Shown piece by piece: positions 9,197-36,906 of a DNA stretch of 64,000 nt. The stretch spans positions 248,001 through 312,000 of the forward strand of contig NC_089436.1 in the NCBI RefSeq assembly GCF_026210795.1. Direction: 5' to 3'. The position numbers and the translations under genes are program-made. The stretch's first letter is position 1, and every line of letters begins with the position of its first letter. Under the pieces are notes generated by a model, which was given only the letters and a program-made list of their open reading frames with translations, searched no databases and was not told the origin of the DNA. This stretch comes from Rhizophagus irregularis (Eukaryota).

Positions 9197-9225
9197 ATTA
9201 GTACTCGATTTAATAGAACGAAAAA

Positions 9226-11739: not shown

Positions 11740-11822
11740 TAAGATAAGCACTTCTTAGTTATCTTATATTTTTTGTATAAAAAACCTATATTACAACTGA
11801 ACACAATTCATAAATACATCAA

Positions 11823-13676
11823 ATGGTTTATTCAGAGATTGTCCGTGCTTTACCTACAAGACCGGATATCAAAGAATTACAGTATTCAGGCGCAAGATTT
11901 TCCAGAGGAGCAATAGCAAGACTTGGACAGCGACTCCAATCCCGGTATCTGACACATAAATTTCAGATTCTGCTCCCCTATGAAAACTGGAAACCCGGTG
12001 GATGGACATCAGGAAACCAACCAGCCAGCCTCTTCTCACTCTTGGACCACTATGATGAAGCACAACTACCGGACGACGCAGACCCCGATTATTTCGAACG
12101 ATTTATAATTTATATAAGAGATACCCCACCGGTTGCAGGGGGTTGCAACGGGGAGCTAAATGATTGCCTGTATGAATGCCTAAAATATATCTACGGCACA
12201 TTCTCTAAAATGCCAAAGTCAATCGAAAAGCCCGAGTATATCAAAAAGGCATTAGGTCTCAATCGCGATGCTCCCATCCCAGTTTCATGCATGGACAAGG
12301 TTGAACAACTCGCAGGAAGTCTCGCAATTAATATTGTGGGGGACATTACCCGAATCTCTAAGAGTAAGTCCGATAGATGTGTAACACTCATCCTATCAGA
12401 AGGCCATTACTCCCTCGCGTTAAATCCCAGAAGACTCCATCCCAGTAAAATAGATAGAAAGCGTAATTTACCCATTGTATACCATGAAGATGGGACCAAT
12501 AATGTAGTCACAATATACAACGGCAAAACGGTTAAGTCTTGCACAATTGGGCAGTTTCAAAAAACTAAGAATTCCAAGAGTTCTTTCATCCCCGTCGAGA
12601 AAAACCGTAAGACTGGGGTATATGAAACTCTCGAAGAAGCATATCAGAGAATCCACGAGGAGCAGAATTCCTTTCTACAGGAGACAAAGAAGTTCAGTTT
12701 AGGAATCGACTTATCATACCATAACTGGTCTTACAAAAGAACGGCTCTCTGGTTATTCGAACGATTAAGTGTAGGGATTCCGGCCAATGATCCTCTTGAC
12801 CCGATAGAAGTAGAGTGGTTAAGTGATGCAATGATGGGAGGATTAATCTGGGCAGATAACGAGTGGAAGGGCTATGGAAGACAGTACGACGCAACAAGTT
12901 TATACCCGAGTATCCAACAATCGAACGCGAACTTTCCAATCAGACGGGGTAAATTCCAGACACTTAATGACTTTGTTGACCACAGGGGTTATGCCTTGTA
13001 TGGATTATTCCGTGCCAAGGTAAGTGGGAATAATATTCTCTTCCGACAGAATAAAAGGGGAATCTATACATTCATCGACTTACAACGAGCAAAAAAACTT
13101 GGTCTCAATATACAGTTAATACAGGATGGGAAGCCAAATGCCTTGATATATGACAGAGACGCAAGAATCCCTGGGACCGTAATATTCGGTGAGTACGTAC
13201 ACTTCCTCTTCAAAATTAAAAACCAGGGTGGCATAGCTGGCCGCGTGGCAAAGCGAGTTCTCAACACATTATGGGGAGCATTATGCCAGAGGAAGCGTAA
13301 TTACAAGACACTCACCACAGATCAAACAGACCCATTTACATTTCCAGAGGGCCATACACTCGACTCTATCATACCAGTAGGATCTGACCAGTGGCGATTC
13401 CAGTTTACAAACCCGGGTAATCCCTTCAAAGGTGAGTATCCCAGGATCGTCCCATTCTTATTAGCACGTGGACGCAAAATCACATCTGAGGCAATTCAAC
13501 CATACAAGGATAAAGTACGACGTATCCATACAGATGGATTTATTTTAGAAGAGCAGCCAGATAGCCCTGCACTTTTCACTTGTTCAGAGAATGCAGATAC
13601 GACTTTAAAGACTTTCAAGTTTGAAACCGCGGGATACTGCCATGTGAAAAATGCGAACAAGGTTATCTGGACATGA
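11823..13676 (+). CDS. polB: Divergent family-B DNA polymerase with putative N-terminal OTU-like domain
   Basis: Motif A YDATSLYPS, motif B KRVLNTLWG, motif C IHTDGF; NDCLYEC...GHY near N-terminus. Confidence 0.85.
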   Translation: MVYSEIVRALPTRPDIKELQYSGARFSRGAIARLGQRLQSRYLTHKFQILLPYENWKPGGWTSGNQPASLFSLLDHYDEAQLPDDADPDYFERFIIYIRDTPPVAGGCNGELNDCLYECLKYIYGTFSKMPKSIEKPEYIKKALGLNRDAPIPVSCMDKVEQLAGSLAINIVGDITRISKSKSDRCVTLILSEGHYSLALNPRRLHPSKIDRKRNLPIVYHEDGTNNVVTIYNGKTVKSCTIGQFQKTKNSKSSFIPVEKNRKTGVYETLEEAYQRIHEEQNSFLQETKKFSLGIDLSYHNWSYKRTALWLFERLSVGIPANDPLDPIEVEWLSDAMMGGLIWADNEWKGYGRQYDATSLYPSIQQSNANFPIRRGKFQTLNDFVDHRGYALYGLFRAKVSGNNILFRQNKRGIYTFIDLQRAKKLGLNIQLIQDGKPNALIYDRDARIPGTVIFGEYVHFLFKIKNQGGIAGRVAKRVLNTLWGALCQRKRNYKTLTTDQTDPFTFPEGHTLDSIIPVGSDQWRFQFTNPGNPFKGEYPRIVPFLLARGRKITSEAIQPYKDKVRRIHTDGFILEEQPDSPALFTCSENADTTLKTFKFETAGYCHVKNANKVIWT

Positions 13677-15314: not shown

Positions 15315-15652
15315 ATGGACTCAACAGGAGTAAGCATTTTGTACTTGACTTTCGTAGGAATTACCCTGCAGAGTCATATTTTTTAGATCCGGCCGGCATT
15401 ACCGCGTAATCCCGAATTACCGAAAAAGGAAATTTATGTTACACAAGATTCCAAACGCATTTTTACCAAAATCGATTTTTTGTGGAACGGGTATCGCCCA
15501 AAAAGGAAACGATCTACGTACCGCATGAAATCACGTGACACTCTACACATTTGTTCAGGGTATCACGTGACATGAACTCCGTTCACATTTTCTGTAATAT
15601 AATCCATAGTTTTTCCATGAATGCTTTTTAGGCCAATAATCCAATAACTTAT

Positions 15653-15757
15653 TCATCAGGTATCCTCGTGTTTCGCGACAAGGACTGATGACCATGTAAC
15701 CTCATCATCAGGCATCCTCGCATTTTTTGACAAGGACTGATGATGATAAGGACTGAT
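15653..15757. repeat. Two tandem imperfect hairpin units plus a partial third; LINE target site
   Basis: TCATCAG..TCCT..AGGA.CTGATGA (15653-15691) and TCATCATCAG..TCCT..AGGA.CTGATGATGA (15702-15746), then GATAAGGACTGAT (15745-15757). Confidence 0.85.
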
Positions 15758-15860
15758 AGATCTCTTCCCGTCGATCTATTGACCAAAAATTTTCAGAAAG
15801 AAAATTTATATATCTTCGTACTAACAACTCTTATATTTTACCCAACTCATACCTTCTAAC

Positions 15861-17984
15861 ATGTCTAGAAACCTTGCTAGAAGAGGTGGCGGCAGCTATA
15901 ATCCTAATAGTAATAAGGCTGCTCGTCAAGAAAAGAAAAATAATAAAAAACAACTCTCCGATAACTCTGGCTCCGATAGTGATAGCACTACTCAAAAACG
16001 TTCCCGCATTATCACTGATAACACCATGGATGAAGATTTCGTTGCCGACGTGCCGGCTGACGGTGGTTTAGTTGGTTCAACTTCGACCGCTATTCCTCAA
16101 CAAAATAATTCCCGCAGCACTTCTCAAGAAAATACTCAAACTTCTACCCCGAAAAATTCTGCTGCGCCCACTGCGCCTGGCCAAGACACGTCCTCTGGAG
16201 CTAACGCGTCTATTCATGCACCACGAAACAAAGAAAATAACTCATCCCCTAACGCGTCCCTTAATATGGACGTAAATGATGGTACATCGCCCGATCAGGC
16301 TGCCGATCCCTCCCCAACTATTACCATTAATCGTCAAGATTTCCTGGCTGCGGCTGCGCCCAACTCTGCTCCCCAAACTCTTGAAAAACTTAAAACTAAT
16401 AAGGCAATCATAGATGCCGTTAACAACTTATTTTTAGAAACATACGAGTCGTATACCGGTCGGGCTCGTATGACTGGTTCAGGGGACGCTAAGCGTCTTA
16501 TCATTCACTTCCATACTGCGGAGGCTCGTGACATGTGTGTTGGTAGCACACACTCTGAATTTCCGGACCTACAATTCCACCTGTACGATCCCAAACAGCT
16601 CCGGTCAGATGAAGACCTCCGTGCAATTCAAGTTACGGATATACCGTTCTTTATTACTAAACTGCAACTCCAATCCTATTTCAAGAAATTCGGCAATCTC
16701 CTTGCCCTCCATCTTTATTCAAGGAAAGGTGCTAAGATGCAACAAGCTCGCATTGTCTATGATCACGCCGATGCCATCTCCCGCTTCACAAATCAATGGG
16801 CAGTTTACTGCTTTTCCACCTGCTTACGTGTTACCCCTTGCCATTACTCTTTAGATCAAAAAGCTGCTCGAAGAGCGTTCGTGGCTGTTCTCTCTGGACT
16901 TCCCGCTAATACTAAAGATATCCATCTCGCTCCTTTGGTCAAAGAACATGGAGCAAAAGCTATTAATATTCCCCTTTCCCTAAACTCTTATAAACCCAAA
17001 CCTTGGTCTTATATTACCTTCAACTCGCAAGAAACAATGGATGCCGCTATGGAGCAAACTATTGGTTTCCAAGGTCGTACTCTTCGATGGGGTACATCCA
17101 ATGATTCGAAAGCTCTTTGCCACCGATGTGGTAAACTCGGTTGTGCTCCTACCTCCTGCCCGCTTAATCAACGCCGAGGTCGTTCACGTACACGTGACCC
17201 TGTGGCTGCTCTTAAAGAACGTTTCAACATCGGCCATAGACCTGCCCAACAAAAAACGCCGCGCAACAATTCTCGTTCTCGTTCTCGGTCTAAATCTCAG
17301 GATCGTTCTGCTTCTGCTCAACGTTCTAATTACAATTCCAATAGCTCTAATACTAATGGTAATAACAATAACAATAACAAACCCTCCTCCTCTGGTTCAG
17401 CCCATTCCTCCTCATCTGCCCATGGATGTACACCTTCCAACAACCGTAAAGGCAAAGATAGATCTGTTTCCTTTTCGTCCAATGCTCGCGCTCCACTTCC
17501 TGATCCGAATTCTTCTAATGCCCTCGAGGCTGCCCTTAAGATACTTAACGTATTGCAAACTCTTCAACAAGATGTTGCACGTGTGGAATCTCGCATCTCG
17601 ACACTTGAACTTAACAATCAACGGCTGTCTGCTATTGAAGCTCACCTAGGCATCAATCCTCCCTCCGTACCTGTTGTCATTTCTAAACCTGATCGGATGG
17701 AAGAAGACCCTCCCGAAACTACTGGTACCTTAATCCCACATCCTAATGCTCCTTCGTCTTCTGGAACTATGAAATCCGCTCCCCCCAAATCTGCGCTTTC
17801 CAATGTTTCACATTCTGTTCCCATAACCAACTCCAACCCTTCCCCGCAAGATGAATTGAACTCTGTTATTCAAGATCAAAAAGCGATTAAAGATACCTTG
17901 CAATCGCTCACTGGTTCCATCCAAGGTTTTATTGCTTCTCTTGGTGGTTCTTCCTCCGATCGAGCTTTGGCTCCTTCGCAATAA
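15861..17984 (+). CDS. LINE ORF1 (RRM-like domains, Cys/His knuckle, RS-rich region, coiled coil)
   Basis: IQVTDIP...FKKFG and SYITFNSQE RRM-like patterns; CHRCGKLGC; intact 707 aa. Confidence 0.85.
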   Translation: MSRNLARRGGGSYNPNSNKAARQEKKNNKKQLSDNSGSDSDSTTQKRSRIITDNTMDEDFVADVPADGGLVGSTSTAIPQQNNSRSTSQENTQTSTPKNSAAPTAPGQDTSSGANASIHAPRNKENNSSPNASLNMDVNDGTSPDQAADPSPTITINRQDFLAAAAPNSAPQTLEKLKTNKAIIDAVNNLFLETYESYTGRARMTGSGDAKRLIIHFHTAEARDMCVGSTHSEFPDLQFHLYDPKQLRSDEDLRAIQVTDIPFFITKLQLQSYFKKFGNLLALHLYSRKGAKMQQARIVYDHADAISRFTNQWAVYCFSTCLRVTPCHYSLDQKAARRAFVAVLSGLPANTKDIHLAPLVKEHGAKAINIPLSLNSYKPKPWSYITFNSQETMDAAMEQTIGFQGRTLRWGTSNDSKALCHRCGKLGCAPTSCPLNQRRGRSRTRDPVAALKERFNIGHRPAQQKTPRNNSRSRSRSKSQDRSASAQRSNYNSNSSNTNGNNNNNNKPSSSGSAHSSSSAHGCTPSNNRKGKDRSVSFSSNARAPLPDPNSSNALEAALKILNVLQTLQQDVARVESRISTLELNNQRLSAIEAHLGINPPSVPVVISKPDRMEEDPPETTGTLIPHPNAPSSSGTMKSAPPKSALSNVSHSVPITNSNPSPQDELNSVIQDQKAIKDTLQSLTGSIQGFIASLGGSSSDRALAPSQ

Positions 17985-18031
17985 CTGACTTCTCACTTCC
18001 TTTCCCCGTACTTTATTATCATTGTGCTCTA

Positions 18032-21000
18032 ATGTCAGACAATTTTAATTATGATACATTTGTTCGTAACCCACCCAACCCCGTAGCTACTTATAATTTT
18101 TCAGAACATGAATCTTTATTTACTACCACAAATTCTTCTCCTATCCCTAATTCTTTTAATATTTCATCCTTTAATGTTAATGGTCTTCGCTATAATAGCC
18201 AAGTTAAAATTGAACAAATTTCAAATTTTTTCAATCTTAAACATATTTCATTTGGTGGTATCGTAGATACCCATTTATCCCCTAAACAAATTCATTTCTT
18301 ATCTAAACGCCTCCCTAATTACACTGTATTTTCATCTGATATAGATAAAACTAAACAAGTTAAATCTACTGGTGGCGTTTCCCTTTTCATTGAAAAATCT
18401 TTTGCTTCACACGTACAAGATTTTGTTTCACATTCCTCACGTATTTTATCTGTTGATCTTTATTTTAAAGGCAACGTTAAATTGCGTATTTTTGTTATTT
18501 ACATTCCCCCTGTTTCTGATTCTAAATTACGATCGGAAACCATTGACCTTCTTCTACAATTATTAGTGCAAACTAAACAACAAAATTTTTATCATGCCAT
18601 TTGTGGCGATTTCAATATGCACTTAGATGCCTATTATCCTATTTATTTTAACCGCCCTTCTGTTGCTTCCCAACGAACTTATCGTTTGCTACACCATCTT
18701 TTATCTCATGGATATGAAGAAACCATTCCTGTTAATGCTTCTGATTCCTTAGGCACCTTCCACCGAGACGATCAAGTTACTCGTATAGACTATGTTTGGT
18801 CTTGCCCAATGCTGAAAAGCTTTGCTCTCACCTCCTATATATTTGACGCTCAGGACACCTGCTTTTCCGATCACAATCCCATCATCACTTATTTCGATGA
18901 ATCACTCTTGTTCGCGTCTATCAAGGTTGCTCGCGCTAAACAACTTCAACGTCGAACTCGCCGTATATTCAAATTCAATTCAGTCACTGATCAGCAATGG
19001 GAATCTTTTTCTACTCATACTGATTCTTTATGCAACGAACCGCCGTCATCCTTCTCAACTTGGCATATTAATCAACAATGCGAATATTTACATTCTCGTA
19101 TAGTGAAAGCTGCTAATGCCTCTCTTCCATCCGTCCTGGTTGGCAATCAACATACGCCTACAGTGCCTAAAGAATTGGAAGCCCTAACTCAACATTATCG
19201 TTTCCTCAGCCGTCTTTTGCATTCGATACGTTTATTGCGAAAATATCCTTCTACTTATTATAATAGACATGAACGTACTTGGTCCACCCATTTCATTAGA
19301 CTTCAAAAGATTCTTCATCTTTATAAGAAGGTTATTCCTTCTCCCCCTATTTTACCTTCTTCTTTATCCTCATGTAGGCAAGACGATTTTAAATTCTTAC
19401 TGGAATCTTTAAAAACTATCTCCAGTGCCCTCCATGGCTTTCTTCTTTTCAAAGAAAAAGATTTTCAAGACTCTTCCATTCGTGCTAAATTGGACGATAG
19501 GGACAATAATTTTGAAACCGATATTTCCTCCTTTATTAATTCTGCTCTCTCAAGGACTCGACGCCGCATCACCTTGGATCGTATTTTCATCGACCACCCT
19601 ACACAACCAAAACTTTTAACAGACCCGCATGATATTGACGACGCTGTTATCAATCATTTCCAGAATTCCGTCCCTATAAAATCTTCTCCCCCGGATAATA
19701 TTTCCATTCTCCCGGATAGATGGTCTTCTGCTTATCGCCCTATGGATGATGTGGATTCTTCTGTTTACAACTCCTTGTTGGATCCTCCTACCCTTGAAGA
19801 ATGGTTGTCTACGGTCTCCTCGATGCCAAATGATAAAGCTTCTGGTCCCTCTATGATCACCTATGAGATGCTTAAACATCTGGGTCCCGTCACTTCAGCT
19901 TTGGTTCTAATCCTGGTACAATCGTGCCTTCGCACCGCTGATATTCCTGATTTATGGCGTCAAGCTATGGTTTTCCCCATCCCTAAACCTCACGAATGGA
20001 AATGTCAACTCAAAAATACCAGACCTATTACTTTACTTGAAGTAATTAGGAAATCTTTGGTTAAACTTTTTTATAATCGTCTCGCTTCCATTTTGGCTTC
20101 AAATAAAATTCTCAAAGGTGGTAACTTCGCTGGTCTCCCTGGTGGTTTTTGTCGCAACCCTATTGTCGTCCTGGAATCTATTATCCATGATGCTCATGTC
20201 AACAAATCACCGCTTTGGATCCTTTCGCAAGATATTTCAAAGGCTTTTGACTCGGTTGATCTCAAGATGTTGCGTTTCGCTCTTGAACGCATTAAACTTC
20301 CTGCTACAGCTATCAAGTTTATTCTATCCCTTTTCATGAAACGCTCTAATCACGTTTTTACTGCTCATGGTATTACTCCTTCTTACCGTGTTCGCATTGG
20401 TATAGATCAAGGCGAAGTTATCTCTCCTTTACTTTGGGTTATATATATAGACCCTTTATTGACGGTTCTTAAGAATGAAATGATGGATCCATATACACTT
20501 CATGCTCCCTCTTTATCTAATCCCTTGGCTGAATCAAATTCAAATGATTTACGAATTAACAACTTGGTCTTTATGGATGATTCCACTTTAATTTCATCAT
20601 CCAAATCTGGAATGGAATCGATGCTCTCTATTACGGAAGAATTTTATCAAATCAATAATACTTCCGCTAACCACAGCAAATATGTTTTAATTACTAATTC
20701 GTTGCCTCCCACTTCAGTTTTTTCGCCTTCTCCAGTCGTGTTTGACTTGCAATTATCCGGTTTGAACAAAGTTCCTTCCATTTCTATTGTGCCTATCTCC
20801 ATAAATAGCTCTTTTCGCTTCCTGGGCGTCTGGTTTAATGTCGCTGGATCTCGCGATTTCGTCAAAAAGCAAGTTGCTAGAGAATGCAACTCCTTCGCCG
20901 CTACTGTTCGCCTGCCAAATTATCTGCTAAACAAGTAGTTTATTTACACAATACCGTCCTTATTCCGAAATTGGAATATCGCATGCAAGTCACTCACCTC

Positions 21001-23652
21001 TCCGAATCTGAATGTGCCTTGGCAACCAGCAGTATCCGTTCCCTGGTTAAACACAAGGCCAATTTTTCACGTGTACTCCCAGATTCTATTTTGTTTTTAT
21101 CTTAAGGCTTGGGCTTGATTAATTTATTTTTTCACCAGTCACAAACACATTTAACTAATTTATTTTTATTAGCTAATTCTTCCTCTTCTTTTATGAAAAA
21201 TTTATTTTTATATAGATTACGTTTAATTCAATTTTCTTTTTTGATTCCTATTTCCCCGTTGTTAGTTAAAGATTGGACTATATGGTCTAAACTTTTTGCT
21301 TTTAAACAGGATTATATCGCTTGCACTATTGCTCTCCTGACCACAACTCCGTTTGAGTTGTCGCATTCACGTCTTTCAACTTTGCCTGACCTGACTCTAC
21401 CTGATGGTCATACACCTTTATTTGACATTATGACTCCTAATATTTTTATCTCTTACTTCCGACGTCTTAGAAGTTTGCATCTATATTACCTATCTCAATT
21501 TATTACACCCCAAGGAACCCATATGATTACTTGGAATGTTTATTTATCCCGTCTATCAAGTAGAAAAGGTCATCGAGTCCTCCCCCATAAATGGTTCAAT
21601 GACATCAGCCAATGTGTCACTGTTCCAAATTCCAATTCTCTACTCTTGGATCAATTTTCTTCTGATGCTTTTCCTTCAGACATTGATTTGGTTCCAGCTT
21701 TTGGTTCCTCCAGGAAATCCATGAAATGGATCGTGACTTTGGACGAAGATGGCTCTCCTCTTTTTGGAAAACAACTCAGCAAACAACAATATTCATGCAA
21801 GATTGTCCATTGGACCTCTGATTGTGTGACTCGCCCTAATGACGTTATTACGCTCACTCCTTGTCCTGGTTGTTCTAAACATGTACCGACTACTCATACT
21901 AAAAATAATCCAGCAGATGTTACTCCTTTATGTATCATCCCAAAACTTTCTCCTCTTAGATCTTTAATCCTTCCAACATCGCAGGAGCGTATTAGAAATG
22001 ACACTACCGCCATTACTTCTCCCTTTACTTGGGCGGACCTTGATGAAATTGTAAGATCATATTATGGTCGTTTGGACATTCAACCTAATTTTTCACAAGC
22101 AGATGTGGTTACTTTCCCTTCTCCTTCTCTTCCTTCTTTTTTGGACTCGGCTGCCTCTCTTGCTTTTGCTGCCTCACCGTTAGCGACCCCTCCTGATAAT
22201 CATTATTGTTTTTATACTGATGGTTCTTTAATTAACCTTGGCACTCCTGATGTTTCAATGGGTTGGTCTTGGGTTCAAGTCCTAGATGGTGCTGGTTTTT
22301 TCCAATCTATCGCTGCTTATGCTCATGGAATTATTCACAATTGGCCTTCCTCTACAAGAGCTGAAACCGCTGCTATACATGCCGCCCTTACAGTCACTCC
22401 TCCTTCTTCAACGGTCACTATTTATACTGACTCTCAATCAGCCATAGATGGTCTTCGTCTATGTGCTTCTTCTTCTTATTCCAATAGTAGGCTTTATTAC
22501 AAGACCACCAATTTTGAACTTTGGGCTATTATTGAACATCTCATTTCCTCCAAGTCTTTATCCGTCACGACTGTTAAAGTGAAAGGTCACTCTGGTAATT
22601 TTTACAATGACTATGCGGACTCCTTGGCCAACTCTGCACATACTTCTTCCTCTGCAATCCTTCTTTCTGATCTGGATCAAGTATCTCCTCACGATTTTAT
22701 ATTAAAATATGATGATATTTTATGCGAATCCAACCCACGATGCCTATTCAAACAATATTCGCAGATGCTGTGGATGCATAGATTAACGCATTTGTCGCGT
22801 TTTATCTTTACTAGTACTTTATCTTCCATTCCAGATTTCGTGATTGATTGGGATCTCACCTGGTTCTCTTTGAACTCTGAACCTCAGCACGATGCCTCTT
22901 TTACCCGAGCTCATGCTTCCTCTCATCACACCTTCAAATTCAAACTCTTTTTGGAAGATTTACCTACTTTGGAATATCTCAAAAGAATTCGCCCGGACTT
23001 GTATATCGATATTTTATCATGTCGTTCATGCCTCGACTCCAAGGAAGATTTCATGCATTTGTTTATGTGCAAATGTAGACGAATCGCTATGGAACAGATT
23101 CTCCTCTCATACCAAAATCACTTTATCAACAAACTTCAAGAAGCTGGTGATCTCGTTAAGAAAGATCCCTCTTTAATTATTAACAAATTTAAATCTCTTT
23201 CTTGTTGGTCCTTTTCTTCTTCAAATTGGACTTCATATAGTCTTGTCCGTGGCTGCCTTCCGATATCCTTTGTCGAATTTTTTGAAGAACTTTCTATCCC
23301 ACGTAATTCTGCGATGAAGGTTATCTCTGCTATCTACAACCATTTTATCCAAAAGATCAGAAAACGAATTTGGCTACCGCGCTCCTATGATAAATCAAAA
23401 TGGGAAGACGCGATGAATATCACCCATAAACTCAAACTTTCTCGGCCTTCAAATTTGCCAAAGTCTACGTACTTACCTTTCTCAACTTTACCTCCTCCGA
23501 CCCTTTCCGACGCCGCACGTGACTCCGACGTTGATTATTTAAAGAACTCGATGAAATATGGTTTGCCTTGGTTTAATCACTATTCGGGTTTTATGGGTCG
23601 TCTAACGGTGCAACTTACTAACAGCTTTAGCAGGGTGGTGTGTCGATTTTAA
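18032..23652 (+). pseudogene. LINE ORF2 (AP endonuclease, RT, RNase H, Zn finger), disrupted
   Basis: SFNVNG, GDFN, RIDY, SDH; QGEVISP, FMDD; FYTDGS, YTDSQ, VKGHSG. 1-bp deletion near 20910 and TAA at 21103-21105 relative to copy 2. Confidence 0.9.
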
Positions 23653-24043
23653 TAATGGGCGCATTATTCGTTGGTTTGTTTGCATAGTTGCTTCTTCTTA
23701 GGTTGGAATATATCTAGGCGGGGGATCAGGATAGTTTTAGTGTTATGCGATTTTTTCCTTTTCGAATTAATTTTATAGCTTTATTACTGTTTTGGAGACT
23801 ATATAGTTTTATTTTTAGTTATTTTTATTTTTCTACTTTTGTACTTTAAAAAAATTTTATGTTATTTTTGTAAGTTCGATAAATAAATTTAATAAAGATA
23901 AAGGCTACTATGCCATGTTTGCCTTGACAAGGACTGATATAGATCTCTTCCCATCGATCTATTGACCAAAAATTTTCAGAAAGAAAATTTATATATCTTC
24001 GTACTAACAACTCTTATATTTTACCCAACTCATACCTTCTAAC

Positions 24044-26167
24044 ATGTCTCGAAACCTTGCTAGAAGAGGTGGCGGCAGCTATAACCCTAATAGTAACAAG
24101 GCTGCTCGTCAAGAAAAGAAAAATAATAAAAAACAACTCTCCGATAACTCTGGCTCTGATAGTGATAGCACTACTCAAAAACGTTTCCGCATCATCACTG
24201 ATAACACCATGGATGAAGATTTCATTGCCGACGCGCCGGCTGACAGTGGTTTAGTTGGTTCAACTTCGACCGCTATTCCTCAACAAAATAATTCCCGCAG
24301 CACCGCCCAAGAAAATACTCAAGCTTCTACCCCGAATAATTCAGCTGCGCCTACTGCGCCTGGCCAAGACGCGTCCTCTGGAGCTAACGCGTCTATTCAT
24401 GCACCTCGAAACAAAGAAAATAACTCATCCCCTAACACGTCCCTTAATATGGACGTAAATGATGGTACATCGCCCGATCAGGCTGTTGATCCCTCCCCAA
24501 CTATTACCATTAATCGTTAAGATTATGTGGCTGCGGCTGCGCCCAACTCTGCTCCCCAAACTCTTGAAAAACTTAAAACTAATAAGGCAATTATAGATGC
24601 CGTTAACAACTTATTTTTAGAAACATACGAGTCGTATACCGGTCGGGCTCGTATGACTGGTTCAGGGGACGCTAAGCGTCTTATCATTCACTTCCATACT
24701 GCGGAGGCTCGCGACATGTGTGTTGGTAGTACACACTCTGAATTTCCAGACCTACAGTTCCACCTGTACGATCCCAAACAGCTCCGGTCTGATGAAGACC
24801 TCCGTGCAATTCAAGTCACAGATATACCATTTTTCATTACTAAACCACAACTCCAATCCTATTTTAAGAAATTCGGTAATCTCCTTGCCCTCCATCTTTA
24901 CTCAAGGAAAGGTGCTAAGATGCAACAAGCTCGCATTGTCTATGATCACGCCGATGCCATCTCCCGTTTCACGAATCAATGGGCAGTTTACTGCTTTTCC
25001 ACCTGCTTACGGGTTACCCCTTGTCATTACTCTTTAGATCAAAAAGCTGCTCGAAGAGCGTTCGTGGCTGTTCTCTCTGGACTTCCCGCTAATACTAAAG
25101 ATATCCATCTCGCTCCTTTGGTCAAAGAACATGAAGCAAAAGCTATTAACATTCCCCTTTCCCTAAATTCTTATAAACCCAAACCTTGGGCTTATGTTAC
25201 CTTCAACTCGCAAGAAACAATGGATGCCGCAATGGAGCAAACTATTGGTTTCCAAGGTCGTACTCTTCGATGGGGTACATCCAACGATTTGAAAGCTCTT
25301 TGCCACCGATGTGGTAAACTCGGTTGTGCTCCTACCTCCTGTCCACTTAATCAACGCCGTGGTCGCTCACGTACACGTGACCCTGTGGCTGCTCTTAAAG
25401 AACGTTTCAACATTGGCCAAAGGCCCGCCCAACAAAGAACGCAGCGCAATAATTCACGTTCTCATTCCCGGTCTAAATCTCGGGATCATTCTGCTTCTGC
25501 TCAACGTTCTAATTCCAATTCCAATAGCTCTAATACTAATGGTAACAACAATGGCAATACCAAACCCTCCTCCTCTGGTTCAACCCACTCCTCCTCATCT
25601 GCCCATGGATGTACACCTTCCAACAACCGTAAAGGCAAAGATAGATCTGTTTCCTTTTCGTCCAATGCTCGTGCTTCACTCCCTGATCCGAATTCTTCTA
25701 GTGCCCTTGAGGCTGCCCTCAAAATTCTTAATGTCTTACAATCACTTCAACAGGACGTTGCTCGTGTGGAATCTCGCATCTCGTCCCTTGAACTTAATAA
25801 CCAACGGCTCTCTGCTATAGAAGCCCATTTAGGCATTAATCCTCCTTCTGTTCCTGTCGTTAATTCTGAACCTGATCGAATGGAAGAAGACCCTCCTGAA
25901 AACACTGGCACCCTAATTCAACATCCCAATGCTCCTTCATCTTCTGGTCCAACGAAATCCTCTTCTCCTAAATCTCAACCCGACAAGACTACACACTCTG
26001 CTCCCACTTCCACCGCTAACCCTTCCCCGCAAGATGAATTGAACTCAGTTATTCAAGATCAAAAAGTGATTAAAGATACCTTACAATCGCTCACTGGTTC
26101 CATCCAAGGTTTTATTGCTTCTCTTGGTGGTCCTCCCTCTGATCGAGCTTCTGCTCCTTCGCAATAA
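24044..26167 (+). pseudogene. LINE ORF1, copy 2, one in-frame stop
   Basis: TAA at 24518-24520 where copy 1 has CAA. Confidence 0.88.
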
Positions 26168-26214
26168 CTGACTTCTCACCTCCTTTCCCCGTACTTTATT
26201 ATCATTGTGTTCTA

Positions 26215-29200
26215 ATGTTAGACAATTTTAATTATGATACATTTGTTCGTAACCCACCCAACTCCGTAGATCTTATAATTTTTCAGAACATGAATCTTTA
26301 TTTACTACTCCAAACTCTTCCCCTATCCCTAATTCTTTTAATATTTCATCTTTTAATGTTAATGGTCTTCGCCATAATAGCCAAGTTAAAATTGAACAAA
26401 TCTCTTTTTTTTTCAATCTTAAACATATTTCATTTGGTGGTATCGTAGATACCCATTTATCCCCTAAACAAATTCATTTCTTATCTAAACGCCTCCCTAA
26501 TTACACTGTATTTTCATCTGATTTAGATAAAACTAAACAAGTTAAATCTACTGGCGGCGTTTCCCTTTTTATTGAAAAATCCCTCGCTTCTCATGTACAA
26601 GATTTTGTTTCGCATTCCTCACGAATTTTATCTGTTGATCTTTATTTTAAAGGCAACATTAAATTTCGTATTTTTGTAATATATATTCCTCCCGTTTCTG
26701 ATTCTAAATTACGATCAGAAACCATTGACCTTCTTTTACAATTATTAGTGCAAACTAAACAACAAAATTTTTATCACGCCATTTGTGGCGATTTCAATAT
26801 GCATTTAGATGCTTATTATCCTATTTATTTTAATCGCCCTTCTGTTGCTTCCCAATGAACTTATCGTTTGCTACATCATCTTTTATCTCAAGGATATGAA
26901 GAAACTATTCCCGTTAATGCTTCTGTTTCCTTAGGCACCTTCCACCGTGGTGATCAAGTTACTCGTATAGACTATGTTTGGTCTTGTCCAATGCTGAAAA
27001 GCTTTGCTCTCACCTCCTATATATTTGATGGCCATGACACCTGCTCTTCCGATCACAATCCTATCATCACTTATTTTGATGACTCACTCTTGGCTGCGTC
27101 CATCAAGGTTGCTCACGCTAAACAACTTCAACGCCAAACTCGCTGCATATTTAAATTCGATTCAGTCACTACTCAACAATGGGAATCCTTTTCTACTCAT
27201 ACTGATTCTTTGTGCGACGAACTGCCATCAACCTTCTCAACATGGCATATTAATCAACAATGCGAATATTTACATTCTCGTATAGTGAAAGCTGCTACTG
27301 CCTCCCTTCCATCTGTCCTGGTTGGCAATCAACATACGCCTACGGTGCCCAAAGATTTGGAAGCCCTAACTCAACATTATCGTTTCCTCAGCCGTCTTTT
27401 GCATTCGATACGTTTATTGCGAAAATATCCTTCCACTTATTATAATAGACATGAACGTACTTGGTCCACTCATTTCATTAGACTTCAAAAGATTCTTCAT
27501 CTTTATAAGAAGATTATTCCTTCTCCCCCTATTTTACCTACTTCTTTATCCTCATGTAGGCAAGACGATTTTAAACTTTTATTGGCATCTTTAAAGACTA
27601 TTTCCGATGCCCTCCATGGTTTCCTTCTTCTCAAAGAAAAAGATTTTCAAGATTCTTCCATTCGTGCCAAATTGGAAGATAGGGACAATAATTTTGAAAC
27701 CGATATTTCCTCCTTTATTAATTCTGCTCTCTCAAGGACTCGATGCCGCATCACCTTGGATCGTGTCTTTATCGACCATCCTACACAACCTAAACTTTTG
27801 ACGGACCCGCATGATATTGATAACGCTGTTATCAACCACTTTCAGAATTCCGTTCCTATAAAATCATCTCCCCCTGACAATATTTCCGCTCTTCCAGATA
27901 GATGGTCTTCTGCTTATTGCCCTATGGACGATGTGGATTCTTCTATTTACAACTCCTTGTTGGATCCTCCTACCCTTGATGAATGGCTGTCTACGGTCTC
28001 TTCGATGCTGAATGACAAAGCTTCTGGTCCTTCTATGATTACCTATGAGATGCTTAAGCATCTGGGTTCCAATACTTCAACTTTGGTTCTAATCCTGGTA
28101 CAATCATGCTTTCGTACTGCTGATATTCCTGATTTATGGCGTCAAGCTATGGTTTTCCCCATCCCTAAACCTCACGAATGGAAATGTCAACTCAAGAATA
28201 CAAGACCTATTACTTTACTTGAAGTAATCAGGAAATCCTTGGTTAAACTATTTTATAATCGTCTAGCTTCCATTTTGGCTTCAAATGAAATTCTCAAAGG
28301 AGGTAACTTCGCTGGTCTCCCTGGTGGTTCTTGTCGCGACCCTATTGTCATTCTGGAATTTATTATCCATGATGCTCATCTCAACAAATCGCCGCTTTGG
28401 ATCCTTTCACAAGATATTTCAAAGGCTTTTGACTCGGTTGATCTTAAGATGTTGCGTTTCGCTCTTGAACGCATTAAGCTTCCTGCTACTGCTATTAAGT
28501 TTATTTTATCTCTTTTCATGAAACGCTCTAATCGCGTTTTTACTGCTCATGGAATTACCCCTTCTTACCGTGTTCGCATTGGTATAGACCAAGGCGAAGT
28601 TATTTCTCCCTTGCTTTGGGTTATATATATAGACCCTTTATTGACTGTTTTTAAGAATGAAATGATGGATCCATATACACTTCATGCTCCCTCTTTATCT
28701 AATCCCTTGGCTGAGACAAGTTCAGATGAATTACGTATCAACAACTTGGTCTTTATGGATGACTCCACTTTAATCTCATCATCCAAATCTGGAATGGAAT
28801 CGATGCTTTCTATTACAGAAGAATTTTATCAAATCAATAACACTTCTGCTAATCACAACAAATATGTTTTAATTACTAATACGTTGCCTTCTACTTCAGT
28901 TTCTTCACCTTCTCCAGTCGTGTTTGACTTGCAATTATCTGGATTGAACAATGTTCCTTCCATTTCTATTGTGCCCATCTCCATGAATAGCTCTTTCCGA
29001 TTCCTAGGCGTCTGGTTCAATGTCGCTGGATCTCGCGATTTTGTCAAAAAGCAAGTTGCTAGAGAATGTAATTCTTTCGCTGCTACCGTGCGCCCTGCCA
29101 AATTATCTGCTAAACAAGTAGTTTATTTACACAATACCGTCCTTATTCTGAAACTGGAATATCGCATGCAAGTCACTCACCTCTCCGAATCTGAATGTGC

Positions 29201-31835
29201 TTCGGCAACCAGCAGTATCCGTTCTTTGGTTAAACATAAGGCCAATTTTTCACGTACACTCCCAGATTCTATCTTGTTTTTATCTCAAGGCTTGGGATTG
29301 ATTAATTTATTTTTTCATCAATCACAAACACATTTAACTAATTTATTTTTATTAGCTAATTCTTCTTTTTCCTTTATGAAAAATCTATTTTTATATAGAT
29401 TACGTTTAATTCAATTTTCCTTTTTGATTCCTATTTCCCCATTGTTAGTTAAAGATTGGACTTTATGGTCTAAACTTTTTGCTTTTAAACAGGATTATAT
29501 CGCTTGCACTATTGCTCTCCTGACCACCACTCCTTTTGAGTTGTCACGTCCACGACTTTCAACCTTGCCTGACCTTACTATACCTGATGGTCATACACCT
29601 TTATTTGATGTTATGACTCTAAATATTTTTATATCTTACTTCCGACGTCTTAGAAGTTTGCAACTTTATTACCTATCTCAATTTATTACACCCCAAGGAA
29701 CCCATATGATTACTTGGAATGTTTATTTATCCAATCTATCAAGTAGGAAAGGTCATCGAGTCCTCCCACATAAGTGGTTCGTTGACATCCACCAATGCGT
29801 CACGGTTCCAAATTCCAACTCTCTGCTCTTGGATCAATTCTCTTCCGAAGCTATTTCTTCAATTATTGATTTGGTTCCAGCCTTTGGTTTCTCCAGAAAA
29901 TCCATGAAATGGATCGTGACTTTAGACGAAGATGGCTCTCCTCTTTTTGGAAAACAACTCAGCAAACAACAATATTCTTGCAAGATTGTCCATTGGACCT
30001 CTGATTGTGTGACTCGACCTAATGATGTTATCACGCTCACTCCTTGTCCTGGTTGTTCTAAACATGTACCGGTTTCTCATACTAAAAACCAACCATCCGA
30101 TGTTACTCCTTTATGTATCATCCCAAAACTTTCTCCACTTAGATCTTTAATTCTCCCAACAACGCAGGAGCGTATTAGACATGACACCACCAATATTACT
30201 TCTCCCTTTACTTGGGCAGACCTTGATGAATCTGTACGATCATACTATGGTCGTCTGGACATTCAACCTAATTTTTCACAAGCAGAAGTGGTTATTCTCC
30301 CTTCTCCTTCTCTCCCTCCTACTCTGGACTCGGCTGCCTCTCTTGCTTTTGCTGCCTCCCCGTTAGCGACTCCTCCTGACAACCATTATTGTTTTTATAC
30401 TGATGGTTCCTTAATCAACCTTGGCACTCCTGATGTTTCAATGGGTTGGTCTTGGGTTCAAGTCCTAGATGGCGCTGGTTTTTTCCAATCTATCGCTGCT
30501 TATGCTCATGGAATTATCCATAATTGGCCTTCCTCTACAAGAGCTGAAACCGCTGCTATACATGCCGCCCTCACAGTCACTCCTCCTTCTTCAACGGTCA
30601 CTATTTATACTGACTCTCAATCAGCCATAGATGGTCTTCGTCTATGTGATTCTTCTTCTTATTCCAATAGCAGGCTTTATTACAAGACCACTAATTTTGA
30701 ACTCTGGGCTATTATTGAACATCTTATCTCCTCCAAGTCTTTGTCAGTCATGGCTGTTAAAGTGAAAGGTCACTCTGGTAACTTTTACAATGACTACGCG
30801 GACTCTTTGGCCAACTCTGCGCATACTTCTTCTTCAGCAATCCTTCTCTCTGATCTGGATCAAGTATCTCCTCACGATTTCATATTAAAATATGATGATA
30901 TTTTATGTGAATCCAATCCTCGACGCCTATTCAAGCAATATTCGCAAATGCTGTGGATGCATAGATTGTCGCATTTATCGCGTTTTAACTTTATTATTAC
31001 TTTATCTTCCATTTCAGATTTCGTGATTGATTGGGATCTTACCTGGTTCTTATTAAACTCTGAACCTCAACACGATGCCTCTTTTACTCGTGCTCATGCT
31101 TCCTCTCATCACACCTTCAAATTTAAACTCTTTTTGGAAGATTTACCAACTCTGGAACTTCTTAAAAGAATTCGCCCGGACTTGTATATCGACATTTTAT
31201 CATGTCATTCGTGCCTCGACTCCAAGGAAGATTTCATGCACTTGTTTATATGCAAATGTAGACGAATCGCTATGGAACAGATTCTCCTCTCCTATCAAAA
31301 ACATTTTATTAACAAACTCCAAGAAGCTGGTGATCTCATTAAAAAAGATCCGTCTTTAATTATTAATAAATTTACATCTCTTCCTTGTTGGTCCTTCTCC
31401 TCTTCAAATTGGACCTCTTATAGTCTTGTCCATGGCTGCCTTCCAAAATCCTTTGTCGAATTTTTTGAAGAACTTTCCGTTCCACGTAACTCAGCGATGA
31501 AGGTTATCTCTACTATCCACAATCACTTTATCCAAAAGATCAGAAAACGCATTTGGCTACCGCGCACCTATGATAAATCAAAATGGGAAGACGCGATGAA
31601 TATCACTCAAAAACTTAAACTTTCTCGGCCTTCTAATTTGCCAAAGTCCACGTACTTACCTTTCTCCACTTTACCTCCTCCGACCCTTTCCGACGCTGCA
31701 CGTGACTCTGACGTTGATTATTTAAAGAACTCGATGAAATATGGTTTGCCTTGGTTTAATCACTACTCGGGTTTTATGGGTCGTCTAACGGTGCAACTTA
31801 CTAACAGCTTTAGCAGGGTGGTGTGTCGATTTTAA
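26215..31835 (+). pseudogene. LINE ORF2, copy 2; 5' lesions, RT-RNase H part open (26868-31835)
   Basis: Frameshift near 26270 and TGA at 26856-26858 where copy 1 has CGA; same domain motifs as copy 1. Confidence 0.9.
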
Positions 31836-32187
31836 CAATGGGCACATTGTTCGTTGGTTTGTTTGCATAGTTGCTTCTTCTTAGGTTGGAATATATCTAG
31901 GCGGGGGATCAGGATAGTTTTAGTGTTATGCGATTTTTTCCTTTTCGAATTAATTTTATAGCTTTATTACTGTTTTGGAGACTATATAGTTTTGTTTTTA
32001 GTTAATTTTATTTTTCTTTTTGTACTTTAAAAATTTTTATGTTATTTTTGTAAGTTCGTTAAATAAATTTAATAAAGATAAAGGCTACTATGCCATGTTT
32101 GCCTTGACAAGGACTGATGACGATGTCACTTGGTTATTGTAAATTGAAGATAACAATTAGGTATGTAGACACGTACAGAAAAAAGAC

Positions 32188-32956: not shown

Positions 32957-33516
32957 ATGTCAACATCAATCGTAATAAACCAGTGTCAGAACTGTGGAGT
33001 ATTCTCTGCAAAAGCGGCATATAGAGGATTATCCAGCGTGTTGTATAGACAGATTATAAAGAAGATTGGCGACGAGAGTGAACCTTTACAAGCCTTGGGA
33101 CTTGCCAGGGATAAGTTGGTCCAGATTATTCGTCGGGCAAGTAATGCGGATTTTACACAATTATTCACACAAAGACTGGATATGAAAATTATGGACGGAG
33201 ATTCATACGAGGATACTAGGAAGTGGTTTCTTGAACAGCTTATAGCCATTGGATGTGACAGTGGGGAAATTGCCTTATATCAGTTCTTACAGAATACATA
33301 CCCGGATGGTATTGACGAACCCTTTACTACATTCTATGAGAACTATGTAAGTCATGTAAGAAATCCGATGACTAAGAACTTTGCTTCTCGAGCCTTAGGA
33401 GCTATTGGGTTAAAAGCTAGGATGCTACGGATTGACTTCGAAGGACGTAAAAAAGCGCCATGATTCTTAGGGCTTCTGAGGAAGAACTTCGCGAGATTCT
33501 TACAAAATACTATTGA
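32957..33516 (+). CDS. Protein paralogous to the helicase C-terminal (winged-helix-like) region; probable 1-bp frameshift near the end
   Basis: LYQFLQNTY...FYENY...PMTKNFASRALGAIGLK aligns by eye with helicase LFQFIKDTY...FYRVY...PLSKINASRILSNELGIK; as sequenced stops at 33463, one more A at 33449-33454 extends it to 33516. Confidence 0.6.
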
Positions 33517-34723
33517 TCCCTACTCGTAATGCTCGACGGTCCATATGACCCTTAGAAAAGATCTGTAAAAGGACCCCGATGCCTTCTATTATTTTTTTAT
33601 TATCCAAAGGGTAACTAGACTTCAGGACTTCATATCGGGAGAATAACTCCTTTACGGTCTCAGGTTTTGGAATTTCAGTCTTTGTGGTCCTATCCCGTAC
33701 TTTTGCTAAGAAGTTTTGGAAGTCTGATCCCAGGGTCTTACCAGATAGTCCGTAGGCTTCCCGAAAGACGTACTTAATCCAGGTATCTGCGTTCTTAGCT
33801 ATAACACCGGATACGAGGAGGTGTTTTCTCTCTTTAGGCGATGGATATTCCCGAGCAAACTCGATTAGCTGGGAGGACTTTTTTGCTTCAGCTACGGCTT
33901 TCTGGCCATAAGGACTAAACTTCGATCGAACTGGGTTCAAACTCGGATTGAACGGGGATCGAACTGGGTTCAAACTTGGATCGAACGGGGATCGAACTGG
34001 GTTCAAACTCAGATCGAACTGAGATTGATCAGTGATCGAACTGAGACTAGTATCCCATCTAACCCGAATAGATAACGGATCGCTCTTGGATCTTCTAAGA
34101 TCAAATACTATAAATTCGCGTTGTAAAGTAAGGTCATCGATTACTGGAGCTAGTGACTCCGATTCTTCTGTATACTGGCGGATGATCCTCTTAGTATCGG
34201 TCAAACTTCCGTGACCTCCATGTAGGGAAATATAATTCACATTTTCACGAATAGCCTTGGGAATGGTAAAGAATCTTTGGGCCACATAGATACATGAAAT
34301 ATTTTTGTGTCGTCCGTGTGTAAAAAATCCAGTGATGAGATCCTGGGTTTTTTTAGGCGCATCCATCAAATCCTTGAAGATTACCACAGTAGCCTGGGTG
34401 GAGTTGAAGTCCTTAACATTTGGAATCTCACTATGGGATACTGCGGTAAACGGAATTTCTTCTTCTTTGAAAAAATCACGTACGACTGCCCACTTCGGTT
34501 CATCGAGGTATCTGCCAACTAGAATTACTGCATCACATAATATGTACCTTTCGCCATCCTCCTTTGCCTTCTTGTCTCCCATTAACAAATTAATGATCAT
34601 AGTTGTCTTACCCGAGTCAGAACTTCCTGCTACGGCAAGACGGAAAGGCCATGATGGGGCAAACTCATTACCCTGTCTTGAGTCGGTCGTGTACTCGTCC
34701 AAATTGTATACATAAAGATCCAT
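33500..34723 (-). CDS. A32-like (FtsK/HerA superfamily) DNA packaging ATPase
   Basis: Walker A GSSDSGKT, Walker B VVIFKDL, FTHGRHKNISCIYVAQ and IRENV signature. Confidence 0.88.
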   Translation of the reverse strand: MDLYVYNLDEYTTDSRQGNEFAPSWPFRLAVAGSSDSGKTTMIINLLMGDKKAKEDGERYILCDAVILVGRYLDEPKWAVVRDFFKEEEIPFTAVSHSEIPNVKDFNSTQATVVIFKDLMDAPKKTQDLITGFFTHGRHKNISCIYVAQRFFTIPKAIRENVNYISLHGGHGSLTDTKRIIRQYTEESESLAPVIDDLTLQREFIVFDLRRSKSDPLSIRVRWDTSLSSITDQSQFDLSLNPVRSPFDPSLNPVRSPFNPSLNPVRSKFSPYGQKAVAEAKKSSQLIEFAREYPSPKERKHLLVSGVIAKNADTWIKYVFREAYGLSGKTLGSDFQNFLAKVRDRTTKTEIPKPETVKELFSRYEVLKSSYPLDNKKIIEGIGVLLQIFSKGHMDRRALRVGINSIL

Positions 34724-34754
34724 TTGAATTTTATTCTAACTTAGTTTAAATACG

Positions 34755-35438
34755 ATGTCGACACCAATTGCAATTTATACTCCTTCAGAGCCTACTGGAC
34801 CGCCTCCTAGGGATTTGCGTGATATGAATAATATACCATTAGTTGCGGTAATTAAGGATCAAACAGATTTTTTAACTGTCAGTGATCGCATGGTTGTTAA
34901 TCGAGATGTACAAAATGCAAACCATCGTCTTAAACATGCTCTTAATTTATTAATTCATCGCTGTAGAGAAACATACGAAGAACGCGATATATTAAAAGCA
35001 GAACGCGATCGATCTCGAAAAGAACGCGATGAATTACAAGATGAATTCGAGGTTCAAGCAGGTTTGTTAGGTCTTACACAAGATGAGCTAAATATCGTAC
35101 AAGATACTATTACTGGTTTAGAAGCTAATTTGGCTGAATTGGAACGTGAGTTTGGTGGTATGCGGATGACTAATCGTCGTCTTCAGCAGCAATATAATCT
35201 TATGAGAGGAGAACGTAATAGAGCTATAGGTGAGCGTGATGTGGCACGAAATTGGCTTGTATATGCCAATAATCGGGTTCTTTTTGGAATTCGGACATTG
35301 GGACGTCTTAGGAATCGACTTTTCCAACAAATAGCTGCTCTGCGTATCCAAGTACAATGGTTTCGGATTAGACAATTGAACCCTCCTCCACCTCCTCTCA
35401 ACCATCCACAAAATACGATATGGCTGCTGTTGGTATAG
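34755..35438 (+). CDS. Coiled-coil protein, possibly the N-terminal part of Gag
   Basis: Heptad-like E/R/L-rich region, poly-Pro end; overlaps Gag ATG by 19 nt. Confidence 0.6.
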   Translation: MSTPIAIYTPSEPTGPPPRDLRDMNNIPLVAVIKDQTDFLTVSDRMVVNRDVQNANHRLKHALNLLIHRCRETYEERDILKAERDRSRKERDELQDEFEVQAGLLGLTQDELNIVQDTITGLEANLAELEREFGGMRMTNRRLQQQYNLMRGERNRAIGERDVARNWLVYANNRVLFGIRTLGRLRNRLFQQIAALRIQVQWFRIRQLNPPPPPLNHPQNTIWLLLV

Positions 35439-36906
35439 CTGCCCCCATATTTCATGGTCGGGAAGATGAAGATCTTAATCTTTTTATTGATAACTTTTTA
35501 GGGTATATTAATACCGTTGGTATTGATCCATTGGACGATGCTGGTGTACCCCCTGGTCGGGTGAGAGCGATGGGGGTTCTTCGTAGCTGTATGAGAGATG
35601 AAGCGGCGAGGTGGTTTGATGCAGAACTTACTGGAAAAAATTGGGAACTCTCGAATATTCGGTTAGTGGCTGCTGCAAATGGTGGAGTCAGTGCCACTCG
35701 CCGAGCATTCAGAGCTTTGGCTGTTCCTGAGGTTGCTAATGGATTACATGTTGGTACTTACTTACCTGGGTCTGATGCTGATGCATTTTCAAGGATTGCA
35801 GGTAATGCGGCGGTAACCGTTGGAGATGCATTTTTCCCATCACGCGCTGATATCGTTAGAACGAATTTTAAAGTTGAAGAGCAGTGGAGGCGTGCGGGCG
35901 GACGTCCTACTCATCAACCCGTTAATGGGTTGGGAAATCATGGAGGTCCATTTAATGCTGCTGTTCAGAATCAACCGATAGTCTTACAGGGGATTCTCCT
36001 GGATCAAGCATTTATGCATATGCGCACAAATTTTCCAACCGTTGTGGAAGAAAGACTTCAAATACGATTTAGTAACCTTTACCAGGAACAAGGTGAACCT
36101 GTTCGATCTTACTATAAGCGAGTTGAGAGGGCTGGGATATTGTAGGATATAATCAAATTATGGTTACTGACCAGTTCTATAGAGGACTTTTGCCGGAAAA
36201 CGTTATTGAAGCTTCCAGAATCGGGGCGGCACCTCTTAATATATTAATCGATAGATTGAGTGATCTTGAGCGATGAAAGGGCGAAATGTTCTATGGATTA
36301 CAAAGGCGTCAGGGTATTGAAAAGGCTAAAAAAGAGGAATTGGCTGGCTATACTCATCCCGTGACTCCACACGAAGGTGCTGTAATGCAAAGGTCGACAG
36401 ACGTTATTACTCAAGAACGATTACAAGAATTGCTTAAGACACAGGCCGAGGAACTTACCAAGAATTTCCAGGCGCAATTTAAACAATTACAAGCATTTAA
36501 ACCAGTTCGTAAACCACTGGTCTATAGACAACAGATTAAACCTGTTCGACCAAAACCACAGAGACGTGTTGTTCAGGATCATCAGGATCCTGATTGGGAT
36601 GATGGTTATGTAGATCATGATGTTGGTGATGACCCTGATGCTCCTGAATGGACTAGTGAGGATGATCAACATGTTATTGATCTTATTATGGGATATGAGA
36701 CGTCTAAAAGATTTCCAAAGCGACTTCAGAAGGCTAAAGATAGACGCGATGATTTGGAATTAGCCCGAGCAATGAGAAACCTCGATCTTAATGATGATGC
36801 TATGGATATTGATACTAATACCGCGAGTTTTGATGACTTGAAATTTGTTCCCGATGAGGAAGGTGGTTTTCGGATTTGTGCGGTTCGAAGTACAAAAAAA
36901 AAGTAA
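35420..36906 (+). pseudogene. gag: Ty3/Gypsy-like Gag (capsid) gene with two lesions
   Basis: APIFHGREDEDLNLFIDNF start, AARWF, MHR-like LYQEQGEPVRSYYKRV; a 1-bp shift near 36142 gives LGYNQIMVTDQFYRGLLPE; TGA at 36274-36276 is in frame with the 36286-36906 ORF. Confidence 0.7.

Follow-up and report, generated by a model that had tools for sequence, protein, structure and literature searches.

Long interspersed nuclear elements (LINEs) that insert at fixed positions are concentrated in a few lineages, most target-specific families being placed in the early-branched, Tx1 and R1 groups (PMC4640811; this and all other papers are cited for the portions of their text available to us). The endonuclease determines the target choice of LINEs, and members of the Tx1 clade target transposons (Tx1L in Tx1D, Tx1-Mar in Mariner-N4_AMi and Tx1-9_AMi in Harbinger) (PMC4494074). 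Virus-like DNA elements are entered by retroelements as well: 91% of type 1 Ngaro elements in Cafeteria lie inside EMALEs (virophages), with an adjacent double insertion, and of 20 insertions 9 were intergenic, 7 genic and 4 in terminal inverted repeats (TIRs) (PMC8547959), and nested retroelements occur in cryptophyte Polinton-like viruses (PMC12220804). Maverick/Polinton-like elements of Glomus and Rhizophagus have recently expanded in R. irregularis (PMC8647823, PMC11075540, 10.64898/2026.06.19.733378, PMC8502044). Here we analyse a stretch of 64,000 nucleotides from Rhizophagus irregularis (assembly GCF_026210795.1, contig NC_089436.1, positions 248,001 to 312,000 of the forward strand; hereafter the window), in which two LINEs, LINE1 and LINE2, stand head to tail inside a Polinton-like element. 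We consider it likely that they belong to one LINE subfamily, were derived separately and occupy a single intergenic Polinton site, that the subfamily recurs there in other copies of the host element, and that it inserts by target-primed reverse transcription (TPRT) after an apurinic/apyrimidinic (AP)-type nick at a motif like TTTTGACAAG.

Set beside the described systems, the locus shares with Tx1 an AP endonuclease (APE)-type LINE with two open reading frames (ORFs) and a fixed position in another mobile element; it differs in its Polinton-like host in a fungus and in an ORF2 with RNase H, Tx1 being described as an animal clade in the accessible text of PMC4494074. With Ngaro it has in common retroelement subfamilies that differ in their preference for a virus-like host, an intergenic bias and an adjacent double insertion, but Ngaro is a tyrosine-recombinase element that occupies many sites, whereas here a TPRT LINE forms arrays at one. 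Like R1, R2 and Utopia, it sits at a fixed site in a multicopy sequence, with a 14-bp duplication (as in R1), variable 5' junctions (PMC3414825, PMC4640811) and copies that occasionally stand in tandem; that the LINE is transcribed together with its target, as described for R2 (PMC3414825), is here only presumed. Unlike these elements, which target host RNA genes, it has a target with no match to an Rfam RNA or ribozyme. The host in turn resembles fungal Maverick/Polinton-like elements in its TIRs, PolB-like gene, rve-chromo integrase and A32 ATPase, and departs from them, as described in the available text, in its resident LINE and in a Gag-like/retropepsin gene with no capsid match. Fungal Polinton-like genes are noted in PMC8502044, PMC4409740 and 10.64898/2026.06.19.733378, and a figure legend in PMC8502044 lists a Gag-like/retropepsin gene in one element. 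Papers on the transposable elements of R. irregularis list Maverick and LINE families and, in their accessible parts, mention no such nesting (PMC8647823, PMC11075540). Our literature search, which did not extend to Repbase, to subscription papers or to most supplements, turned up no description of a Polinton that houses a site-specific LINE; the family may already be named in Repbase or in the transposable-element library of PMC11075540.

Both elements are APE-type non-LTR retrotransposons, that is, LINEs: each has an ORF1 for a nucleic-acid-binding protein, an ORF2 combining an AP endonuclease with a reverse transcriptase (RT), and target-site duplications (TSDs), and repeat and alignment comparison found no long terminal repeats (LTRs) flanking either. 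Pfam matches in both comprise RRM_1 in ORF1 and Exo_endo_phos, RVT_1 and RNase_H in ORF2 (RNase_H E-values of 4.8e-12 and 1.7e-11); a C-terminal CCHC motif can be read off the ORF2 translation, and inspection of the end sequences revealed no poly(A) tail at either 3' end. AP endonucleases usually carry a metal-binding Glu at a position that is occupied here by Asp (GIVDTH), a replacement seen in 12 of 12 sequences across this subfamily and the sister subfamily discussed below. The two copies, each 8.17 kb long, align end to end over their full length at 93.0% identity, with 567 substitutions (413 of them transitions) and 7 gap bases in 5 gaps; identity is lowest (84-85%) at 17506-18005, the C-terminus of ORF1. 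Their lesions do not match: in LINE1 it is ORF2 that is disrupted, by a frameshift (near 20910) and a stop (21103), whereas LINE2 has a stop at 24518 in ORF1 and, in ORF2, a frameshift near 26271 and a stop at 26856. Alignment and element boundaries thus bear out a preliminary description of this DNA, which had claimed two LINEs head to tail inside a Polinton-like element, with many substitutions, a reworked ORF1 C-terminus and distinct lesions.

Did these copies diverge where they now lie, or did they arrive separately? The LINE ORFs were under purifying selection while the copies diverged, the ratio of nonsynonymous to synonymous divergence (dN/dS) between them being 0.175 for ORF1 and 0.132 and 0.138 for ORF2, and 3 stops are present, against 17.2 expected had the coding differences built up neutrally in place. 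The stop count implies decay of about 0.6% per copy (95% range 0.1-1.8%), near the divergence of the host TIRs. From the dN/dS and the stop deficit it follows that the two lineages were active while they diverged, and that the copies met at this site afterwards. Their synonymous divergence (dS) of 0.21-0.25 compares with 1.5% between the TIRs, and, together with the unlike lengths of their duplications, these values uphold the earlier claim of two independent insertions. A local tandem duplication or an assembly artefact, which would account for the head-to-tail layout and for the short repeats at every joint, is refuted for this pair by the dN/dS and stop-count results; a divergence of 7% at a dN/dS of about 0.15, unlike lesions, unlike duplication lengths and a tandem junction also in a public run (X6) all speak against it, so that its probability is negligible.

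The insertion site was compared with public contigs, those of runs X1, X4, X11 and X6 for the 3' junction and those of seven runs in a wider survey of flanks. Contigs of X4, X11 and X6 hold the empty site, in which window position 15726 joins 32104 directly; all four runs (X1, X4, X11 and X6) contain, in addition, another variant of the Polinton in which the site is empty. Because the empty site joins 15726 to 32104, the segment 15728-15747 is the left duplication, and because this duplication covers the 13-mer that starts at 15729, that 13-mer belongs to the insertion site. Exact copies lie at 15677, 15729, 15745 (in the GAT form), 23926 and 32106, and with up to two mismatches the 13-mer has 11 matches in the window against 2.68 expected. 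The preliminary description had taken it to stand uninterrupted at both 15677 and 15729, which holds for 15677, the sole unused copy, but not for 15729, lying as it does in the left duplication. It does mark the insertion boundaries, as had been proposed, but is not the complete duplication, since the duplications likely measure 20 and 14 bp and are joined by short target-like leaders. Nor does it everywhere form the end of the LINE: in each of the seven runs, 6-22 contigs leave the window directly after the LINE's last base, and the empty site itself holds the 13-mer. No open frame longer than 35 codons spans the empty site, which is therefore intergenic, and no Rfam family was matched beyond chance at the two hairpins, which resemble each other and of which the second holds the target (Table 1). 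That the target might be a ribozyme or an RNA gene was considered for the hammerhead-like core of the hairpins and rejected as unsupported, there being no such Rfam match and the core being paired in the fold. Upstream of the hairpins, TCACGTGA occurs twice (15530-15575), which suggests that the LINE target lies in a regulatory region.

Table 1. Features of the Polinton-like element, its two LINEs and their junctions (window coordinates)
Feature	Position	Strand	Remarks
Left TSD ATTGG, 5 bp	8710-8714	.	Identical 5 bases at 40113-40117
Left TIR	8715-9196	+	482 bp; 7 mismatches in 481 aligned bases vs right TIR
D5-like primase/helicase	9217-11739	+	DUF5906 2.7e-17; phrog_1829 DNA primase 8.3e-15
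Short protein-primed PolB-like gene	11814-13676	+	DNA_pol_B_2 1e-5; phrog_1907 7.7e-4
First intergenic hairpin	15653-15693	+	Contains unused 13-mer copy at 15677
Second intergenic hairpin	15702-15745	+	3' arm is the LINE target; z -2.95 for 15640-15760
Left target-site duplication, 20 bp	15728-15747	+	One C/T difference vs 32105-32124; empty-site contigs
10-nt target-like extra AAGGACTGAT before LINE1	15748-15757	+	Identical extra in tandem junction of run X6
LINE1	15758-23924	+	ORF1 15861-17984 (RRM, zinc knuckle), ORF2 18032-23652 (APE, RT, RNase H, CCHC)
Middle junction	23925-23940	+	14-bp duplication and 2 extra bases
LINE2	23941-32104	+	Layout as LINE1
Conserved 43-nt 3' tail	32062-32104	+	Also in related elements at other sites
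Right target-site duplication	32105-32124	+	Runs on into Polinton DNA
A32-like packaging ATPase	33500-34735	-	Pox_A32 2.7e-10
Gag-like protein and retropepsin, several frames	34740-37625	+	Retrotrans_gag 0.024, Asp_protease_2 4.5e-8
rve integrase with chromodomain	37640-38770	-	rve 1.8e-7, Chromo 9e-18
Right TIR	39632-40112	-	Pairs with 8715-9196

Contigs that bridge the LINE end to the Polinton-like element at the same base (32069/32078-32133) were found in three of the four runs (X4, X11 and X6), with three junction variants in X4 and two each in X11 and X6. As a rough guide, not a copy number, the summed junction depth amounts to 0.53 (X4), 0.34 (X11) and 0.27 (X6) of the Polinton-side depth; it is, again roughly, 14 times (X11) and 23 times (X6) that of low-depth contigs with unique flanks. 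Further junctions vary in form: X6 has a head-to-tail junction carrying the same 10-nt extra as precedes LINE1, X5 and X15 a form without the 2-nt extra, and X1 one in which part of the target is repeated. As expected of a sequence-specific LINE, copies from independent lineages are found at one and the same base of a target that is itself repeated. In viral and metagenome contigs the LINE 3'-end pattern gave chance matches only (34 of 34 loci unrelated), and neither the target pattern nor the ATPase had matches in viral contigs.

Recurrence was also followed in the annotated R. irregularis assembly, using as a proxy the order of accessions, which follows contigs (two gene/accession pairs are both 32 apart). 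The samples were chosen by size, with at most 15 members per cluster; the subfamily was represented by 10 of 212 ORF2 clusters, a sister subfamily of 61-68% identity, which served as control, by 6, and the ATPase by 14 of 236 clusters. In these sampled lists, 15 of the subfamily's 35 accession clusters have a Polinton ATPase no more than 15 accessions away, compared with 0 of 26 for the sister (Fisher p 5e-5), the background shares of accession space being 2.3% and 7.0%. Hand-merging of two accession series gave 22 loci (one ambiguous accession on a 2.51-Mb contig being merged into this count), of which 13 are ATPase-adjacent (12 by accession and 1 on a 50.5-kb contig holding ATPase and Gag-protease), 4 are not and 5 are not callable; at least 4 loci carry 2-3 LINE genes each. 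Relatives of ORF2 at 80-93% identity occur on many R. irregularis contigs, and a quick tree (44 rows, none dropped) resolves the ATPase-adjacent subfamily and its sister as two separate, well-supported branches. Ten clusters of the sister lie on one contig of 2,006,788 bp, hinting at a clustered target of its own. The idea of a LINE family that targets this element therefore stands as a preference, given the enrichment and the same-base junctions, but hardly as an exclusive habit, with 4 of 22 loci having no listed ATPase nearby and an odd contig in X1. As to whether other copies sit at unrelated sites, 13 of the 22 sampled loci are ATPase-adjacent and 4 are not, and the elements with the same tail that sit elsewhere are probably related ones.

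What is found at those other sites? In the contigs with other flanks the consensus TTTTGAC(C/A)A keeps a constant distance from the LINE end. TTTTGACCAG is common to all seven runs, and the agreement of 0.51-0.67 is higher than the 99th percentile for random flanks of 6 or more contigs (marginally so in X1); the runs are not independent, because strains share loci. The Polinton target contains TTTTGACAAG, which suggests, from the sequences compared, a family-wide motif that may have been narrowed or shifted in this subfamily. Between the Polinton site and the others the offset of the motif differs by 6 nt; the endonucleases of the two sister subfamilies are about 70% identical. It is conceivable, then, that any TTTTGAC(C/A)AG-like site is cut and that tolerated insertions simply pile up in Polintons, which offer dozens of such sites, with no true dedication. 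The shared motif in all seven runs, agreeing above random, and the 4 of 22 loci away from any listed ATPase would fit such a loose preference. We nevertheless regard it as unlikely, since the 10-bp motif is far commoner outside Polintons (the window holds 1 further exact match) and yet the enrichment is as marked as reported above; moreover, the eight long other-flank contigs listed match the last 43-44 nt only and differ upstream too, and are for this reason likely to represent related subfamilies with the same tail.

One-base junctions would also be expected from shared descent, so that one or a few old chance insertions, copied along with the Polinton, might mimic targeting by a LINE that has none. 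Under such hitchhiking the LINEs and their hosts should have diverged together, but LINE and ATPase distances are uncorrelated (Mantel rho 0.16, p 0.20; 14 loci, 85 pairs), a test that is based on gene models and weak for young copies, and ATPases 0.3% apart bear LINEs 8.4% apart. Divergence among LINEs of the same locus is 4-8% in three cases, one of them the window, and about 1% in another; at a single locus three LINEs differ by 6.9-8.1%. Hitchhiking as the only process likewise disagrees with the purifying selection on the LINE ORFs, with the presence of several unrelated LINEs at a single locus and with the variation among junctions in 5' extras and duplication length; we hold it to be very unlikely, although a young LINE group in closely related Polinton copies accords with it.

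That young group (LINEs 0.9-2.8% apart in elements with ATPases 1.2-3.7% apart) may owe its distribution to hitchhiking or local duplication, which could equally yield the locus with three copies about 1% apart, and both observations count against the reading we prefer, of repeated targeting of one Polinton site. So do several others. The unused copy at 15677 shows that a 13-mer is not in itself sufficient for insertion. In X1, one contig continues from the 13-mer into DNA absent from the window, the high-depth junction is rearranged, and no contig bridging 32078-32133 is among those listed. The 4 loci of 22 with no listed ATPase nearby are intermixed with adjacent ones in the tree; accession adjacency gives nearness rather than the insertion base, and sampled lists make both adjacency and misses uncertain. 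P0025 of the annotated assembly is 99.9% like LINE2, so the assembly may share this very locus, and the accession test is therefore one within a genome and not of an independent strain. Finally, specificity of the endonuclease for the target is a prediction from sequence.

TPRT by APE LINEs is established, and repeated targeting could proceed by it as follows. The AP-type endonuclease would recognise and nick the motif in the second hairpin region, after which reverse transcription would be primed from the target. In the simplest order LINE1 would have come first, generating the 20-bp duplication, whose right copy would have restored a usable target that LINE2, from another source lineage, then entered with a 14-bp duplication; with the target restored by each duplication, arrays would build up. 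Because the 5' extras of 10, 2 and 0 nt are all suffixes of the target, transcription of the LINE RNA probably begins within the target sequence upstream, much as in site-specific elements that are co-transcribed. The ancestor likely had the looser TTTTGAC(C/A)AG preference that is still seen in the sister subfamily at other sites.

Who would gain from such an arrangement? For the LINE, a repeated and non-essential landing site may offer a safe harbour. The opposite role is that of an inactivator, raised in the preliminary description; as considered here, the fungus would gain from a disabled Polinton. Each insertion does place 8.2 kb into a 15-kb element, in a region of palindromes that is likely regulatory, so that copying or expression could suffer. 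No ORF is interrupted, though, and the ATPase, integrase, primase and PolB-like frames are open in this copy; the intergenic site and the open neighbouring frames fit safe-harbour parasitism better, and inactivation as the main role appears highly improbable. Carriage of the LINE by a moving Polinton is possible. Rather doubtful, if worth stating, is the stronger proposal of a dedicated hyperparasite, a LINE lineage outside the R2-like, Tx1 and R1 groups whose endonuclease would have switched to a single hairpin in a Polinton-like element that bears a Gag gene, and which would be transcribed from that element's promoter and carried to new loci, perhaps to new nuclei or strains, with every move of the element.

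To which clade does the LINE belong? The preliminary description had invoked Tx1 and R1, and membership in either finds no support here. The LINE is not filed as Tx1 because it has RNase H and because its RT is no nearer to L1 than to R2 among PDB entries (77 bits for human L1, 86 for R2); its RNase H fits the I group, and the target is not an RNA gene. Proto1 is an L1-group clade with RNase H. Comparison with a structure database matched the APE to no R1-type structure; the nearest RT relatives in a representative search carry no clade names, and a look-up of the RT in Atlas matched generic RT clusters only. Of 21 long distant relatives, 14 also have the order APE-RT-RNase H. Tx1 is not among the RNase H-bearing clades listed in the available text of PMC4640811, a paper that also names the Proto1 clade.

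The host spans 8715-40112 and measures 15,021 bp once the LINE insert is subtracted. It has the Polinton/Maverick features of long TIRs (divergence 1.5%), a 5-bp TSD, an rve integrase and a packaging ATPase, and is called Polinton-like, not a Polinton virus. Among its ORFs no Pfam or PHROGs match to a double jelly-roll capsid or a cysteine protease was found, though a divergent capsid may escape profiles. The PolB-like protein has 620 aa, and its DNA_pol_B_2 score of 25.1 falls just below the curated cut-off of 25.8, the PHROG match also being weak. The element is multicopy, relatives of its ATPase and Gag-protease sharing one set of contigs, several of them under 60 kb. A Gag-like protein with retropepsin stands in for a detectable jelly-roll capsid and is kept in many element copies; its frames break at a TAG (36143) and close to an A-run at about 36895, and these breaks may be lesions or programmed recoding. 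The structure that AlphaFold predicts for it (pLDDT, the predicted local distance difference test, 31) is unusable. An 11-bp tandem repeat lies within the ATPase frame (33891-34053). Tandem arrays with palindromic units of about 50 bp and units of about 120 bp flank the element (3354-4062 and 40346-41469). Farther along the window, 95-bp inverted repeats (48282-53166) surround ORFs with no Pfam match and may delimit a DNA transposon, and 54583-57009 and 61956-63611 hold a Sel1-repeat gene and a broken Mutator-like element (MULE) transposase.

The locus adds a virus-like DNA element, in a fungus, to the fixed targets of site-specific LINEs, and does so through a LINE lineage that is probably one not known for specificity. 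The sister subfamilies, one in Polintons and the other not, form a natural test of how an AP endonuclease changes its target, a change that bears on tools for site-specific gene insertion. For R. irregularis itself, a key crop symbiont, the consequence is that these Polinton copies are to a large extent nested elements, which affects both their annotation and tests of their mobility.

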